Of a stretch of 64,000 nucleotides of DNA, positions 57,810-64,000 are shown piece after piece. How positions within the stretch are numbered: the first letter of the stretch is position 1; the number at the start of each line of letters is the position of its first letter. The position numbers and the translations under genes are program-made. Source of the DNA: Candidatus Paralachnospira caecorum (GTDB taxonomy: Bacteria; Bacillota; Clostridia; Lachnospirales; Lachnospiraceae); assembly GCA_904379015.1 (NCBI GenBank), contig CAJFHG010000012.1, positions 40 through 64,039 on the forward strand, written 5' to 3'. The notes beneath the pieces are model-generated. The model saw only the letters and a list, made by a program, of their open reading frames with translations, was not told the DNA's origin and ran no database searches.

Positions 57810-59321
57810 ATGTATGAGATTATGAGTTCGGATGAGGCAATCCGCCTGATCCGGGATGGAGATTGTATCTGCGTAAATTCATTTGTCGGCATCGAGAATC
57901 CGGTGGAGCTGCATGAGGCCATTTACCGGAGGTATCAGAGGATGCAGTCTCCGAGGCATCTGACGGTGATTTCCAGCGCCGGGTTCGGCGTGTGGGATGA
58001 GGAGCGCAATGCGGAAGGCTATATTCGGGAAGGCGCGGTGGACCGGCTGATCTGCGGTCATTTCGGAGCGATGCTGAGTACGAAAAAGCTGGTGCTGGAG
58101 GATCGGTTCGAGGCGTATAATCTGCCGCTGGGCTGTATTTCCCACGCGATCCGCGCCCAGGCCGGTGGGCTTCCGGGAGCCCTTTCCAAGGTGGGACTGG
58201 ACATTTTTGTGGATCCCAGGCGGGAAGGACCCGGCATCAACCGGATTTCCATAGACGATTCCCTGGTCAGGTATGTGGAGGTGGACGGGGAAGAATTCCT
58301 CTACTATAAGCTTCCGAAGATCACGGTGGCGCTGATCAAGGGGACCGCGGCGGACCGAAAGGGAAATATTTCCTTTGATGATATGTTCATGTCGGGGGAT
58401 GCCCTGTCCATCTGTCAGGCCGTCAAGGCAAACCACGGCAAGGTGATCGTACAGGTGGACCGGCTGGTCAACACTCCGTCCCGCCCCAGAAACGCGATCA
58501 TTCCCGGCTGTCTTGTGGATGCGATCGTGGTGGCGGAACCGGAGGAGCGGAATGAAGCCTACGCGGCTTTGACCGGCAGTTTTGAGATCCCTTATGAGGA
58601 CTGGAGCATGTGGAATGAGAAGATTGACACGGCTTCCGCGAGACAGTCCAAAAACAGCGCCGTGGGCAATATCATCGGCCGGAGAGCGGCAAAGGAGCTG
58701 CGGGTGGATGATATCGTCAACATTGGGATCGGAATTCCGGAGGTGGTTTCCAGACACGCGCGGAAAAACGGAATGCTGGACATGGTCACGCTTACGGTTG
58801 AATCCGGAGGAATCGGAGGATTCCCGGTTTCCGGGGAAGCCTTCGGCGCGATGATCGGCGCTTCTTCTGTTTATGATATGGCTAATCAGTTCGACCTTTA
58901 CGACAACGGCGGTCTGGATATCTGCTTTATGGGGGCGCTGGAGGTCGACAAAGAGGGAAATGTGAATGCTCACCGGGGGACGGGAGCCTTTGCCGGGATC
59001 GGAGGTTTTGCCAATATTACGGCAAAGACGCCGACGGTCGTTTTCTGTATGACATTCAACACGAAAGGGCTGGAGGTTTCACAGAAAAAAGGGGTTGTGA
59101 CGATCCATCAGGAGGGAACAGTCCCGAAATTTGTGGATCAGGTGAGAAGCGTCAGCTTTTCGGCGAAGCGGGCCATCGCGAACGGGCAGAAGGTGCTTTA
59201 TGTGACGGAGCGCTGCGTGTTCCGGCTGACGCCGAAGGGACTGAAGCTGATTGAGGTATATCCGGGTGTGGACATGGAAAAGGATATTCTGGCCCGGCTT
59301 CCCTTTGAAGTGGAGCTGTAA
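57810..59321 (+). CDS. Acyl-CoA:acetate/propionate CoA-transferase (fused, YdiF/Pct-like)
   Basis: ICGHFG, YNLPLG, GTAADRKGNIS, VNIGIGIPE, TVESGGIGG (catalytic Glu), GGFANIT, YVTERCVF. Confidence 0.88.
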   Translation: MYEIMSSDEAIRLIRDGDCICVNSFVGIENPVELHEAIYRRYQRMQSPRHLTVISSAGFGVWDEERNAEGYIREGAVDRLICGHFGAMLSTKKLVLEDRFEAYNLPLGCISHAIRAQAGGLPGALSKVGLDIFVDPRREGPGINRISIDDSLVRYVEVDGEEFLYYKLPKITVALIKGTAADRKGNISFDDMFMSGDALSICQAVKANHGKVIVQVDRLVNTPSRPRNAIIPGCLVDAIVVAEPEERNEAYAALTGSFEIPYEDWSMWNEKIDTASARQSKNSAVGNIIGRRAAKELRVDDIVNIGIGIPEVVSRHARKNGMLDMVTLTVESGGIGGFPVSGEAFGAMIGASSVYDMANQFDLYDNGGLDICFMGALEVDKEGNVNAHRGTGAFAGIGGFANITAKTPTVVFCMTFNTKGLEVSQKKGVVTIHQEGTVPKFVDQVRSVSFSAKRAIANGQKVLYVTERCVFRLTPKGLKLIEVYPGVDMEKDILARLPFEVEL

Positions 59322-59415
59322 GGCCGGAGAGATCCTGGAGAGCCAGAAGCGTTTTCCTTGAATACACTTTTTGCGTCCTGCATAAGATGTAAAAAAGTGT
59401 ATGGGGAGAATATCC

Positions 59416-59547
59416 TTGAAAGATTATATAGAGGAAAGGGCAGTTGAAATTGCGAACTATATCATCGAGGAAAACGCCACAGTCAGACAGACGGCAAAGC
59501 AGTTTGGAATCAGCAAGAGCACAGTACATATAGAAGTAATAATATAG
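59416..59547 (+). pseudogene. spoIIID: 5' half of sporulation regulator SpoIIID, truncated after KSTVH
   Basis: GGGGAG RBS and TTG start; translation MKDYIEERAVEIANYIIEENATVRQTAKQFGISKSTVH-IEVII*. Intact SpoIIID continues KD(V/L)TERL to ~85-90 aa. The ORF is below the size cutoff of the supplied track. Confidence 0.85.
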
Positions 59548-59582
59548 AACGGTTTGTATGGATGGTGAGATAAAGAAATAAT

Positions 59583-59607
59583 GCCGGTCAGTAGACCGGC
59601 TATTTTT
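59583..59607 (+). terminator. Intrinsic terminator just inside the junction
   Basis: GCCGGTC-agta-GACCGGC followed by TATTTTT. Confidence 0.6.
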
Positions 59608-59731
59608 GTAAAAAGAAAACTTGCTAAATTAGAGATAATATTAAATAATAGAAATTAGAAACTGTCAGACCTTATGGCAGGAGAAATTGTGACTGAATAT
59701 TAGATGATTGGGAATCAAAAGGAAAAGAACG

Positions 59732-60091
59732 ATGTCTGAATGGAAGAATGTTACGGATACTTTTTCAGAGGCGCAAAGACGTTATAACGGTAAATATCTG
59801 GAAATTGATGAAGTGTATGATGATGTGGTTGAAGTCAGTGTGTTTTCAGCGTTGGATGAGCCATATGAAATATATTTCAATTATGATATATTTTTTGGAA
59901 TTGTATATGCTGAAATAGAAAATGTTTATGAAATCCGAGATGAAATGAAGCGGGAGCTGCAGGCAGAATACGAAAAGCATAAAAACGTAACAGATGAATT
60001 TATAAATATGTTTTCTGAAAAATATGGTGTAAGTATGCCGGGAGATATTTTTTCTAATTTTGATCTTTCAACATTTTTTAGTGGAATATAG
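59732..60091 (+). CDS. Hypothetical acidic protein
   Basis: AT-rich ORF with an AAGGA RBS; no recognised motif. Confidence 0.55.
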   Translation: MSEWKNVTDTFSEAQRRYNGKYLEIDEVYDDVVEVSVFSALDEPYEIYFNYDIFFGIVYAEIENVYEIRDEMKRELQAEYEKHKNVTDEFINMFSEKYGVSMPGDIFSNFDLSTFFSGI

Positions 60092-60153
60092 CACAAAGGT
60101 TGAGAGCTGAAGCAGATGGGAAGCAGAATGAAATAAACGGAGGATTTTTAATT

Positions 60154-62118
60154 ATGATTACAACTGAAGAAGCTGAAAGAATAGACGGAGAATTTGCGGA
60201 AGCATTTGCTATAGAGACTGTCAGTACCAGACAGGCTGCCGATAAAATGTATGACGCGTGGCAGAACCTGTATTCTATAATGGAGCGGGAAAATAATTAC
60301 TCGGATAAACTGGGGAGCGCTATCCTGGACTGGCAGATTGGGAACTGGGCGAATGACGTTACTATGGCGCTTCATAATGCCGGATTATATAAAGAGTGTA
60401 TTGAAGTAAACAGGCAGATACTTAAAATTTCATGGAGTCATGACAAAGATTTGTTTTATGAAAATGCCAGGAGAGATATTGCAGACGAATACAGTGACAG
60501 AGGGGATGTACGAACGTGCTTGCGGCTGTATGAAGAATATCTGAATGATGATCCCCAATGGGGATGGGGATGGATCGGGTATTTCCGGCAGTTAAATGAC
60601 CATGATGATATCAGATATGAGCAGGTTCTAAATGAACTGTATGAGAAAGTAAGATCAGGTGTGGAGTTCCGTGATAAGGAGGATCTGTATCGGGAACTTG
60701 GCGATGAATATAATACGTTGGGTAATCAGGAACGGGCAGATTTCTTTTATGGTCTGGAAGACAACGAGGAAGCGATAAGACAGAAAAATATGCTTGCGAA
60801 TACAGTTTCTACGAGTGAAACAGAGAAAGCAATCGCAAGGATTACATACAGAAGTCAGAGATTCCCAAAAGAAGCATTCCGGGTGATAACAGAGAATGAA
60901 GAAACGGCAAAACCGTATCTGAGAGAAGCGCTGGAAAAAGCGATACGGGAAAAAACGGATCTGGACAGTGACTATCAGCTGCATTTTTATGCATTGTTTC
61001 TGTTGGGGCAGTTTCAGGACAAAGAAGCATTTCCCCAAATTACAGAACTTGTATCCCTCCCGCCGGAGGTTGTCGACTATCTGATCGGAGATGCTGTTAC
61101 ATCAGGATTGTCAGATATCCTGTACAATACATACGATGGAGATCTGAATCAGTTAAAACAGATGATTGCGGATATAAAAATCGATGAGTATGTCAGGGCG
61201 GATGTGCTGGATGTAATGGGACAGCTGTATCTGGATGGGAAAATCCCGGAAACAGACTGGAAAAGTTTTCTCTCACAGAAAATTCACGGGGCACAGGGAT
61301 ATGATCACATTTATAACAGAATAGCAGATCTGATCTGCAGATGTCATTTTGTCGATATGCTTCCGGAGATCCGCTATATGTTTGATCATGATCTGATGGA
61401 CGAGGGATATCTGGGAAAATATGATTCGTGCGTGGATCTTATGTTTGAATACAGTGAGGAAGAAGAGCCGTTTTGTGCGAAATCCATGGACGCTGCTGAA
61501 TGCCTTAAGTCGTGGGCAATGTTTACAGACAGCAATACGAAAAATCCGGATATGAGTGAGAAAGACCTGGAAAAAATGTTCAGGGCAATGGAAATAGCCG
61601 TGAATCCTCCGATCCGGAAAAAGAAAATCGGGAGAAATGATCCCTGCCCCTGTGGAAGCGGAAAGAAGTACAAATTCTGTTGTATGAATAAGCCAAAAGA
61701 GCCTCTTGATGAGATTGAAACGCCTGAAGAACGGCGCAGATGGCTGGAAAGATATCCGGTTGTGGGCGATGAGCGGAAACCGGAAAGGGTATATCTGGAT
61801 GATTATTATGACAGGGAAAGCATTGAAACAGATAAAATCCTGTATCTTGGCTTGATGCACCGCCCGGGGCTGATCTGGAATCGGGATGAGCAAAAAGAAA
61901 ACCGCCGTACAAAAGAATATCTCTATCTGGCATTTCAGAGGACAGTTGAAATGGCGAACCGAGAAAGAGTGACATCACTGGCAGAGTTTGATAAAAAGCA
62001 CAGTATCCATTACCGGTGCGAAGAGTGGATTAACAGATTTTTAGAACTGTTGAAAGATGCCGGTGATCAGGCGATGTATAAAGAAGTTAATAATTGGACA
62101 AAAACGATGAAGAAGTAA
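60154..62118 (+). CDS. DUF1186-like helical protein with SEC-C zinc-binding motif
   Basis: YALFLLGQF.DKEAFP...GDAVT...EYVR central domain; KKIGRNDPCPCGSGKKYKFCC. Confidence 0.8.
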   Translation: MITTEEAERIDGEFAEAFAIETVSTRQAADKMYDAWQNLYSIMERENNYSDKLGSAILDWQIGNWANDVTMALHNAGLYKECIEVNRQILKISWSHDKDLFYENARRDIADEYSDRGDVRTCLRLYEEYLNDDPQWGWGWIGYFRQLNDHDDIRYEQVLNELYEKVRSGVEFRDKEDLYRELGDEYNTLGNQERADFFYGLEDNEEAIRQKNMLANTVSTSETEKAIARITYRSQRFPKEAFRVITENEETAKPYLREALEKAIREKTDLDSDYQLHFYALFLLGQFQDKEAFPQITELVSLPPEVVDYLIGDAVTSGLSDILYNTYDGDLNQLKQMIADIKIDEYVRADVLDVMGQLYLDGKIPETDWKSFLSQKIHGAQGYDHIYNRIADLICRCHFVDMLPEIRYMFDHDLMDEGYLGKYDSCVDLMFEYSEEEEPFCAKSMDAAECLKSWAMFTDSNTKNPDMSEKDLEKMFRAMEIAVNPPIRKKKIGRNDPCPCGSGKKYKFCCMNKPKEPLDEIETPEERRRWLERYPVVGDERKPERVYLDDYYDRESIETDKILYLGLMHRPGLIWNRDEQKENRRTKEYLYLAFQRTVEMANRERVTSLAEFDKKHSIHYRCEEWINRFLELLKDAGDQAMYKEVNNWTKTMKK

Positions 62119-62132
62119 GGCGGTGGAAAGAG

Positions 62133-63296
62133 ATGTATCTTCAATGCACAAAAAAGATGCTCGATAAAATGGATATGCAAAGAATGGAAATGATTCCGGC
62201 GGGTGCGTGTGATGACGGGGCAGACGGATTCTATTCATGGCATGTAAATTATATTACGATCAATCGGCGGAAAGCAATCGTGTGTATGAATAATCTGACG
62301 AGGTATCCGATCGTCCTGTACCGTCCCAAAGCAAAGGATATCACACGACTGGGAGAACGGATAAAAGAAGGGATCCGGGAAGCATTTCGGGAGGAAGGAA
62401 TAGCAGAGAGCATTACTGAGGACTATCTGCGAAATTGCGGCAGTGTGATATACTCCAAAACAGCGGGGAGAAGTCTTGTGGCAAGTTTAAACAAGACATG
62501 CGAGACAGTGGGGTATTATATGGATCTCCTGGATGAAGAATCTGTGATACAGAAAAGGATCAGTCTGTCGCTGGGACACTATCTCGTAAAGGTTGGAGAG
62601 AAGTATGAGTATCCTTCGGAGAAATTATTTCAGAGGCTTTGCCTGATGGAAGGAATGCCGGAAGAAAACTGGGAACAGGTACTTCAGATTGAGAATTATC
62701 AGTTGAAAATAAAGCTGATGATTGACGGGTATGATATCTGGCGCCGTATTCTGATTCCGTCCAGATGCACATTCAAACAGCTTCACCGGGTTATACAGGA
62801 AACTTTCGGCTGGTTTGATTATCATCTCCATGAGTTTACTGTACTAGACGAAACGTATATTCCGGAAGAGCATACCCCATTATATGCATGGCCGATAAAA
62901 ATCAGGATTGTCGATGGAGAAGACCCGGAAGCGGAAGAGTATCTGGAACCGGATCAGTATGAAGTGAAATACGATAACCGAACAAGTCTGAGAGAAATTT
63001 TCAGTGATATGGAACGATGTCTCTATACATATGATTTTGGAGATAACTGGGAACATGAGATTCTGCTGGAAAAAGTGATAAAGGACAGCCATAACCGTTT
63101 TCCGGTCCTGCTGGAACGTGAAGGAGAAAGACCGCCGGAAGATGTAGGGGGACCGACTGGATTCAAGGAGTATCTACGTGTCATTTCTGATCCTGAATCT
63201 CCGGAATATGAGTCCATGGCTGCATGGTCGGAAATAACAAAAGCAAAAAAGAGAACCGTAGAGGAGATCAACCGAAGTCTGCGGTATTATCACTGA
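62133..63296 (+). CDS. Plasmid pRiA4b ORF-3 family protein with an N-terminal extra domain
   Basis: IWRRILIP...TFKQLHRVIQ..FGW.DYHLHEF...YTYDFGDNWEH...PPEDVGG..G. Confidence 0.85.
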   Translation: MYLQCTKKMLDKMDMQRMEMIPAGACDDGADGFYSWHVNYITINRRKAIVCMNNLTRYPIVLYRPKAKDITRLGERIKEGIREAFREEGIAESITEDYLRNCGSVIYSKTAGRSLVASLNKTCETVGYYMDLLDEESVIQKRISLSLGHYLVKVGEKYEYPSEKLFQRLCLMEGMPEENWEQVLQIENYQLKIKLMIDGYDIWRRILIPSRCTFKQLHRVIQETFGWFDYHLHEFTVLDETYIPEEHTPLYAWPIKIRIVDGEDPEAEEYLEPDQYEVKYDNRTSLREIFSDMERCLYTYDFGDNWEHEILLEKVIKDSHNRFPVLLEREGERPPEDVGGPTGFKEYLRVISDPESPEYESMAAWSEITKAKKRTVEEINRSLRYYH

Positions 63297-63358
63297 GACG
63301 AGGATAGAGATCACGGAAAAATCTTGAAAAATAGATGTATGAGGAAAAGGAGAATAAC

Positions 63359-63868
63359 ATGATTGCACCGAGGAAGATAAAATTTGAAGCGAAGAAAAAA
63401 AGAGATGAAAATTATGAATTTCGCATTTTCTTAAAAGGGAATGCAGATGATAAGGAACTGGATGAGCAGTTCCACAGACTGCATAGAGAGCTCTTTGCCG
63501 GATATGACTGCAGCCGATGCAGAAACTGCTGCAAGATGTATCGCGGGAGTATTCCGGAAGAAGATCTTGCACGGGATGCAGAGCATATGAGGCTTACAAA
63601 TGAGCAGTTTATTGAAAGATATCTGGGAAAAAAGGATGGAGAAAACAGATACCAGACAAAAAACATTCCTTGTGATTTCCTCGGTGAGGATGGAAACTGC
63701 CGATTGGGCGACTGCAGGCCGGAAAGCTGTAAGAAATATCCATATACGGATCAGCCGGACAGATGGGCGAGCCTTTACAGTGTGCTGGATGTGATCGAAG
63801 TTTGTCCGGTTGCATTCGAAATCTACGAGAGACTGAAAAAAGAATATGGGTGGAGATACAGGAGATGA
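63359..63868 (+). CDS. YkgJ-family Fe-S/zinc-chelating cysteine cluster protein
   Basis: CSRCRNCC...PCDFL...C...RPESCKKYP. Confidence 0.8.
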   Translation: MIAPRKIKFEAKKKRDENYEFRIFLKGNADDKELDEQFHRLHRELFAGYDCSRCRNCCKMYRGSIPEEDLARDAEHMRLTNEQFIERYLGKKDGENRYQTKNIPCDFLGEDGNCRLGDCRPESCKKYPYTDQPDRWASLYSVLDVIEVCPVAFEIYERLKKEYGWRYRR

Positions 63869-63935
63869 CCTTTCCTCGCAAGGAAAGAATGAGATAATCT
63901 TTTTATAAATACAACAAAGGTGTTGAAGGATAATC

Positions 63936-64000
63936 ATGTATGCAAAACAGCCTAAAAAACTTTTGATCTTGAATATCCTGGATATTCTGCGTAAATATAC
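63936..64000 (+). CDS. N-terminus of a probable WYL-domain transcriptional regulator (runs off the window)
   Basis: MYAKQPKKLLILNILDILRKY, similar in style to the N-terminus of 43824-44537; GAAGGA RBS. Confidence 0.55.
   Translation, partial: MYAKQPKKLLILNILDILRKY

Follow-up and report, generated by a model that had tools for sequence, protein, structure and literature searches.

The window analysed here is a 64,000-nt stretch of the Candidatus Paralachnospira caecorum genome (Lachnospiraceae; GenBank assembly GCA_904379015.1, contig CAJFHG010000012.1, here C12, positions 40-64039). Close to its right end it holds one half of the sporulation gene spoIIID, next to what is almost certainly the left end of a mobile island. 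The genome is a draft of 55 contigs and 2.59 Mb that is 95.7% complete, with about 4% unseen. SpoIIID was assigned with Pfam PF12116 (82 positions) and the NCBI equivalog TIGR02844 (80 positions, cut-off 111.5 bits).

The 5' half comprises codons 1-38 (TTG to His38; 59416..59529, plus strand) and ends within the recognition helix of the helix-turn-helix. The truncated reading frame starts at TTG 59416 behind a Shine-Dalgarno sequence GGGGAG (59403-08) and encodes MKDYIEERAVEIANYIIEENATVRQTAKQFGISKSTVH followed by IEVII and a stop at 59545-47. It covers positions 1-40 of PF12116 (E 1.8e-18) and positions 1-40 of TIGR02844, where its 61.5 bits fall under the cut-off, as expected because it is half a protein. 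The intact spoIIID of a same-genus genome (G129, the congener below) matches it without gaps at 74% nucleotide identity. A minus-strand open reading frame (ORF) of 125 aa at 59152-59529, which overlaps both this half of spoIIID and the gene before it, was treated as spurious.

Upstream lies a promoter with sigmaE-type layout (59360..59388, plus strand), consisting of GAATACA (59360-66), a 14-nt spacer and CATAAGAT (59381-88). At least 20 related genomes carry the corresponding arrangement xATAxx-N14-GCATAcAtTGTAAAAA upstream of spoIIID, and the window promoter would by this layout be sigmaE-dependent. The C. difficile spoIIID promoter has been reported as sigmaE-type (PMC5025042). An exact 11-bp inverted repeat, ATACACTTTTT (59362-72) and AAAAAGTGTAT (59392-402), spans the window promoter and may be an operator. 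It is placed differently from a conserved palindrome in related spoIIID promoters, CAyTGTAAAAACArTG, which comes just after the -10 and straddles the -10/+1 region (loci L003-L014, L021 and others); that palindrome may serve as an operator for SpoIIID itself or for some other regulator.

Beyond the truncated frame stands an intrinsic terminator on the plus strand, GCCGGTC-AGTA-GACCGGC followed by TATTTTTGT (59583..59610; stem 59583-59600, T-run to about 59610). Two terminator-like sites were found against 0.2 expected in shuffles. GC content, taken in 300-nt windows, is 53-56% upstream, 32-36% across 59400-60300 and 41-46% deeper in the element. A preliminary description, made from the letters of the window, had already read the short ORF as a SpoIIID N-terminus breaking off after KSTVH, followed by a terminator and preceded by the inverted repeat, and all three observations hold. 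The fall in GC that it reported is genuine too, but its upstream value of 62% is too high.

The second half and the element boundary

The rest of spoIIID was located on a different contig (C29:35181-35339, minus strand) of this genome. This 3' half supplies codons 39-84, covers profile positions 27-80 and reads KDVTDRLAQINPALASQARIVLDVNKSERHIRGGMATKEKYLHLGK up to its stop (KDVTDRL...ERHIRGG...LGK). It directly follows the 3' end of a large serine recombinase (LSR) gene: read on the minus strand, the end of C29 holds the last 162 LSR codons, open to the contig edge and ending in KIEVDKDGNVDIYLKLLGDLGLDETVLIEDGSAENKTVQNHQDRT and a stop (HQDRT). This LSR stop (ACA-TAA) arises at the junction and overlaps the start of the spoIIID 3' half, and the two genes run in the same direction.

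Joined in silico at ACATA, the halves give an uninterrupted 84-aa SpoIIID that scores 133.9 bits against TIGR02844 (positions 1-79 of 80), above the cut-off. It agrees with the product of the intact 84-aa congener gene at 68 of 84 residues, and the 247 nt align gap-free and colinearly. Downstream of the C29 half come a membrane protein gene and then mbl/mreB (99% amino acid identity to the congener), in synteny with the congener. A promoter of sigmaE-type layout upstream and mbl downstream, as in Bacillus, identify this as the native spoIIID locus; here sigmaE dependence is judged from the layout.

A whole-genome profile search returned exactly two SpoIIID matches, whole or partial, down to E = 10, namely these halves. 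In a 55-contig draft with part of the genome unseen, one might suspect that the fragment is a duplicated remnant, or that binning or assembly produced it, and that a normal spoIIID exists elsewhere. This is very improbable here: the two matches are complementary halves that join gap-free, and the same split architecture occurs in dozens of independent assemblies, closed genomes included.

The boundary is fixed by comparison with two other hosts (loci L022 and L023), in which an exact look-up of a cargo protein described below found the same left end. Identity to these copies is 69-76% on the host side (111 nt) and 90% over the first 100 nt of the element; to a complete relative of the element it is 92.9% over 4805 nt. 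This step places the boundary at 59530/59531. The left and right attachment sites, attL in the window (GTACATATAGAAG) and attR on C29 (GCACATAAAGATG), share the core ACATA (59526..59530), with the crossover dinucleotide inside, and the same core was seen again in other elements of the family. The predicted attB junction joins window ...GCACAGTACATA to C29 AAGATGTAACAGATCG, and the predicted attP junction joins C29 ...CAAGACCGCACATA to window TAGAAGTAATAATATAG.

Because the 3' half adjoins an LSR gene and the genome holds no other spoIIID, we are nearly certain that spoIIID is split by a serine-recombinase island whose attL junction is 59530/59531. The preliminary description had suggested as much. 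It proposed an attL at this point and a 3' half beside a recombinase gene, both of which are now located, and the common ACATA lies within its putative core CAGTACATA. A second intact spoIIID, which it named as a point to check, does not appear among the genome's matches.

Recombinase and attachment sites

The 162-aa LSR fragment of C29 has no Pfam match. It is 72-76% identical to the C-termini of two complete LSRs that stand at the attR of split spoIIID genes in genomes G039 and G157 and that have the domains Resolvase, Recombinase and Zn_ribbon_recom and the motif AAYCRVST. A recombinase of the DUF4368/TnpX type was considered and rejected, there being no DUF4368 match in Pfam searches of the spoIIID-element LSRs.

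Only these last 162 LSR codons are assembled, and the genome has no second LSR that fits the element: the sole other Recombinase-domain match, an LSR on contig C28, is about 23% identical (E 0.01). This could mean a dead copy, with the LSR gene truncated or lost and spoIIID permanently broken. We regard that as improbable. The fragment is open to the edge of C29, and the element's opposite end lies at a contig end as well, a pattern that indicates an assembly break and not a deletion; both attachment-site arms and both gene halves are intact. The C28 LSR itself (C28:34840-36486, minus strand; 549 aa, unrelated) sits at its contig end, next to the 3' end of a gene for an rlmD-like RNA methyltransferase, and probably marks another integrated element leaving its contig.

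Free forms of related elements are found in IMG/VR, among contigs classed as viral. There, genes for LSRs 62-77% identical are followed by a contiguous, nearly palindromic attP and not by spoIIID (e.g. AGAACGTTCTGATTAGTGACTCCTGTACATACAGGAGTAACAAAATAGAACGG). The predicted attP of the window's element, made up of the right end on C29 and the sequence from 59531 onward, aligns with these gap-free, over 18-23 of 34 nt in the left arm and 26 of 34 nt in the right. The right or P' arm (TAGAAGTAATAATATAGAACGGTTTGTATGGATGG, 59531..59565) makes this ungapped 26/34-nt match to the contiguous attP of four IMG/VR contigs, and a scan of IMG/VR with the P'-arm pattern of the window's own element gave no match. 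The first 17 nt of the P' arm encode the junk tail, IEVII and stop, of the truncated SpoIIID. The attP site has its AGAACG motif 5 nt farther out from the core than the attB site does. Such a difference in motif spacing between attP and attB is a geometry known for serine integrases.

In the predicted circle, the LSR reading frame crosses attP. It then regains its last 15 codons (T YRSNNIERFVWMVR; 59526..59573, plus strand, stop at 59571-73), the preceding LSR part being C29:35311-35796. The integrated form stops at ACA-TAA and lacks this tail, and the conserved His-Lys codons of spoIIID (CAT AAR) always create the stop of the integrated state. The tail frame is open with the same stop codon and the terminal motif IER(F/L)xWxIx in about 16 of 25 informative attL or attP sequences. 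In two further loci (L138 and L141) a 12-nt in-frame insertion makes a 19-codon tail that keeps the W-x-I-E end. The 15-aa tail thus looks to be under coding constraint. Since the LSR frame would run through attP into the P' arm in the circle, the presence of the terminator at 59583-59610 is explained: it would be the LSR gene's own terminator in the excised form. It is kept in both other hosts' copies of the element.

The island and its cargo

The left part of the element occupies 59531..64000 (plus strand), 4.5 kb with a GC content of 32-46% against 53-56% in the host flank. C12 ends 175 nt past the window; in total 4.7 kb of the element are assembled on C12 and 0.46 kb on C29, both stopping at contig ends, and no contig-end overlap of at least 15 nt links the two contigs. 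All cargo genes in the window are on the plus strand. The first ORF (59732..60091; 119 aa from ATG, or 127 aa from TTG 59708) has the same position in L022 and L023 and no match in Pfam, NCBIfam or PADLOC, the last of which was used for defence assignments. Next comes a 672-aa protein (60100..62118) with DUF1186 (PF06685, 7.9e-31), a SEC-C motif (PF02810, 1.7e-8) and TPR-like repeats; PADLOC gives a weak PDC-S12 match across its SEC-C part. A 400-aa DUF6933 and PRiA4_ORF3 protein (62094..63296; Pfam 1.2e-44 and 1.5e-48) resembles the candidate defence family PDC-S63 (PADLOC, 6.5e-15). It is followed by a 177-aa protein with a CxxCxxCC zinc/iron-chelating domain (63335..63868; PF03692, 8.4e-8), which is 100% identical in the two other hosts and was the query of the exact look-up above. 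At 63936..64000 a gene begins that leaves both the window and C12. We take it for a WYL-domain regulator from its 366-aa homologue in L022 (Pfam WYL/WCX; PADLOC WYL, 1.8e-30).

The same left end thus stands in three hosts with different flanking genes. Because identity steps up at the junction and the flanks differ, the comparison shows horizontal movement of this island between hosts.

The complete relative, about 21 kb, lies inside the spoIIID of its own host (GCA_002160985.1, NFLQ01000011.1) and was reconstructed by exact-protein look-ups along its contig. Its genes are, in order, the 127-aa ORF, DUF1186/SEC-C, DUF6933/PRiA4, CxxCxxCC, the WYL regulator, an FtsX/ABC/C39 export set, NikA/MobC, a 415-aa gene with no family match, RepA_N, a small ORF, a nucleotidyltransferase, AbiLi, AbiLii, a dGTPase and a 525-aa recombinase. 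PADLOC supports the defence assignments (L024 4845-8553), which are AbiLi/AbiLii, the dGTPase and the PDC-S09-like nucleotidyltransferase, and the cargo looks like a defence island. With RepA_N and NikA/MobC in a 93%-identical relative, and three hosts, the family has the character of integrative mobilisable elements. Phage structural or lysis genes are absent from the called genes of the complete relative. The window's element belongs to a horizontally moving family of mobilisable islands with defence cargo and is not a degenerate prophage. The label 'skin-like' in the preliminary description is apt insofar as an LSR-bearing element splits a mother-cell gene; as to the kind of element, it does not carry over.

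Regulatory layout in relatives

The LSR promoter region is absent from this assembly; in relatives it is a near-consensus sigmaA-type promoter (TTTACA-16/17-TATAAT). A copy of the attB right half-site, AAAGATGTAACAGAACG, follows directly after the LSR -10 (L029-L108; e.g. L073 2950-2975). Allowing at most 3 mismatches, 61 of 77 sequences have it at -39 to -46 relative to the start codon, against 4 of 1540 in shuffles, a count that shows conservation of one feature and not 61 independent events, because the sequences are mutually related. A second TAACAGAAAGG overlaps the LSR ribosome-binding site. The half-site motif fits the C. difficile SpoIIID box KRTAACARK (PMC5025042). The GTAACAGAACG sites in the LSR promoter of the relatives are candidate binding sites for the LSR, as its own operator, or for SpoIIID.

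The small ORF, recognised by the motif KLNYRFHNPN..A.YILKV.IEAN..KVE, occurs in each of the 8 viral relatives, at 22 genome loci (within 3-kb flanks) and in the 21-kb relative. It is also the only gene besides the LSR in a 2-kb minimal element. Upstream of it, GACTATT or GGATATT is separated by a constant 14-nt spacer from CATAG..ATGGACAAAGA, the layout of host spoIIID promoters. We consider it a candidate recombination directionality factor, presumably driven by sigmaE.

A minimal element at L035 432-3180 consists of attL, a 78-aa small ORF and an LSR, whose frame of 684 aa has no spoIIID 3' half after it. Its right junction may be degenerate.

Distribution

We searched a sample of 201 Lachnospiraceae genomes for SpoIIID. 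The gene was found in 123 of them, and 20 of these 123 have split copies only, broken at the same place: the 5' halves cover profile positions 1-40 to 1-44 and the 3' halves start at position 34. Element sizes in the sample range from 3.5 to 25 kb. Species genomes were also scanned with an alignment of four spoIIID-adjoining recombinases, which gave 530 LSR relatives; among the 80 best (77-98% identity), 72 directly abut a spoIIID 3' half (HKD...ERHIRGG). Cultured carriers include several Blautia, with B. schinkii MSK.6.26 among them, as well as Schaedlerella arabinosiphila DSM 106076, Agathobaculum butyriciproducens DSM 100391, Mordavella massiliensis An582 and the isolate of GCA_002160985.1.

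Three genomes of the sample have unusual arrangements. The closed genome G096 carries two different spoIIID 5' halves in tandem, 5.8 kb apart, ahead of a 25-kb element and a single 3' half (L018 2001-2165 and 7843-8007; L019 15094-15249). Insertions may have been stacked there, or a 5' half captured. The tandem halves hint that the 5' half might travel with the element. We rejected this for the element studied here, as the 5' half is 69-76% identical between hosts and the element 90-93%. In G033 a full-length divergent SpoIIID paralogue is encoded directly upstream of the split spoIIID (L020 19024-19320 and 18733-18873, minus strand). Phage-encoded SpoIIID homologues are known (PMC5027557), and the paralogue may belong to another element. 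In G079 a 3.5-kb element in spoIIID (L016 2089-5341) encodes only a 509-aa LSR, which shares 47% identity with the main clade, and a permease of the xanthine/uracil family; no small ORF was seen in it.

Excision during sporulation

We think it likely, from the arrangement of sites and genes, that excision of the island in the mother cell rebuilds spoIIID, and carriers probably have to excise it to complete a spore. According to this model, the LSR would have inserted the island between spoIIID codons 38 and 39. In the integrated state, sigmaE-RNA polymerase would start at the spoIIID promoter, give a useless 43-aa product and stop at the terminator at 59583-59610. The LSR would be made constitutively from its sigmaA-type promoter, and the small element protein would be made in the mother cell from a sigmaE-like promoter and act as directionality factor. 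Together they would recombine attL with attR, releasing a circular island and rebuilding spoIIID, while the forespore would retain the island for inheritance. Since spoIIID itself is the interrupted gene, SpoIIID cannot be required for the trigger. For the mother-cell specificity of SpoIIID we rely on work in B. subtilis and C. difficile (PMC517825, PMC5025042) and not in this organism.

In its target gene, spoIIID, and in the reading frame restored in silico, the element resembles the known intervening elements. The host retains intact sporulation markers: a full-length SpoIVA at 643 bits, Spo0A at 345 bits, and a sigK-like gene without interruption, whose 296 bits fall slightly short of the 298.65 cut-off.

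The island could instead be an ordinary mobile insertion. spoIIID would then be a reliable attB, excision would serve transfer, and the carrier would be asporogenous or would sporulate only after chance loss. The element family is mobile, with RepA_N, NikA/MobC and a relaxase-like gene and 93% identity in three hosts; virome contigs hold a contiguous attP; and for the window's element no excision junction was found. The congener site is empty, with an intact spoIIID. Many Lachnospiraceae sporulate poorly or have lost sporulation. We nevertheless judge this account rather unlikely. Split-only genomes make up 16% of the spoIIID-bearing species representatives, which is high for a lesion lethal to sporulation, and SpoIVA, Spo0A and the sigK-like gene are intact in the host. 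The small ORF promoter, moreover, has the layout of host spoIIID promoters and not of sigmaA promoters. There is also precedent for developmental excision: all tested intervening elements of mother-cell genes (skin, SPbeta, vfbin, vrin, gin and skinCd) are excised in sporulation (PMC6957869, PMC5595907, PMC5025042).

Several observations weigh against excision in the mother cell. The insertion is recent, because the congener site is empty and the element is near-identical in three hosts, and intact halves therefore say little about selection. The sigma assignments rest on short consensus matches, and the -10 CATAGTA also fits the forespore sigmaG-type CATxxTA. The small ORF has no family match in Pfam or NCBIfam. 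Neither it (chance-level tblastn matches only) nor the first ~370 residues of the LSR are in this assembly, which also has no counterpart to the middle of the 21-kb relative. Finally, a single metagenome scan for excision products, with a pattern covering attB, attP, attL and attR of the window's element, found none of its attP, but three attB of other species and one foreign attL.

A more specific proposal, which we put forward tentatively and hold to be doubtful as a whole, is that a portable two-gene cassette of spoIIID-specific LSR and small, unclassified, sigmaE-driven directionality factor makes spoIIID an excision-dependent checkpoint in a large share of gut Lachnospiraceae, so that defence and mobilisable islands ride spores vertically at no cost. 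The cassette would have three controls. Its trigger would be independent of SpoIIID; integration would remove the 15-aa tail and thereby create 'integrated' and 'excised' forms of the LSR; and the half-site or SpoIIID box at the LSR promoter would allow autorepression or shut-off by rebuilt SpoIIID. These three controls, if real, are not described for skin-type elements.

SpoIIID acts midway through the mother-cell cascade, and the textbook skin element depends on it for turning on its recombinase. With spoIIID itself split, the control logic has to be different. If excision is developmental, it would form a DNA-rearrangement checkpoint one step before sigK, and would concern about one-sixth of the sampled spoIIID-bearing species of Lachnospiraceae, which are dominant, transmissible gut spore-formers. 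Annotation pipelines will score genomes with the split gene as lacking spoIIID, hence as non-sporulating. The islands bring anti-phage systems and cross species. Their recombinases make up an extensive natural series that shares a single conserved target of 40-50 bp and is useful for studies of specificity and directionality.

Comparison with known systems

Reviews of intervening elements list sigK, spoVFB/spoIVFB, spoVR, spsM and gerE as interrupted genes (PMC6957869, PMC5595907). A skin-like element in spoIIID of Ruminiclostridium cellulolyticum was reported in one sentence and Table S3 of Galperin et al. 2022 (doi 10.1101/2022.02.25.481979). The target is the same, but that case is a single genome of another order, given without junctions, recombinase family, distribution or mechanism, and we liken it to ours by description and not by sequence. 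We found no study of the junctions, recombinase, distribution or excision of split spoIIID.

A close parallel is skinCd of C. difficile, with a constitutive sigmaA-driven LSR, CD1231, and a sigmaE-driven 72-aa recombination directionality factor, CD1234 (Serrano et al. 2016, PMC5025042). It splits a mother-cell regulator gene (sigK) that excision rebuilds, its LSR promoter is of sigmaA type (TTTAAA/TATAAT, compared with TTTACA/TATAAT in the spoIIID-element relatives), and a small acidic or basic ORF without database family stands behind a sigmaE-type promoter. The target here, however, is spoIIID, upstream of sigK, and the dependence of CD1234 on SpoIIID would be impossible. The spoIIID family is also horizontally mobile, with genes for replication, mobilisation and defence, and both its excision and its directionality factor are predicted.

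The skin element of B. subtilis (sigK, SpoIVCA; Stragier 1989, Kunkel 1990) likewise has an LSR gene at one element end and a mother-cell regulator as target, and the germ line keeps the element. Transcription of spoIVCA needs sigmaE and SpoIIID, whereas the LSR promoter of the relatives is sigmaA-like; and skin is a defective prophage, the spoIIID element a mobilisable island. The gin element in gerE of Bacillus cereus ATCC 10987 (Abe et al. 2017, PMC5595907) is also non-phage, has a serine recombinase and a small directionality factor, and interrupts the gene of a small mother-cell helix-turn-helix regulator. It differs in target, host class and recombinases, and is a single case compared with about 16% of the sampled spoIIID-bearing Lachnospiraceae species.

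Elements of the Tn4451/Tn5397 type (TnpX, TndX) are similar in being non-phage mobilisable or conjugative clostridial elements moved by an LSR via a circular intermediate. TnpX and TndX are not known to need a directionality factor, and their targets are short and GA-centred. The spoIIID LSRs, by contrast, lack a DUF4368 match and are specific for one gene. For the change in the recombinase itself, an analogue is intP of the Myxococcus phage Mx8, a tyrosine integrase gene with attP inside its 3' end, so that integration alters the C-terminus of the enzyme. Mx8 differs in recombinase superfamily and host, and in the present case a conserved 15-aa tail is lost from a serine recombinase. The spoIIID element is a further case of the known class of sporulation-gene intervening elements, with some control features that are new.

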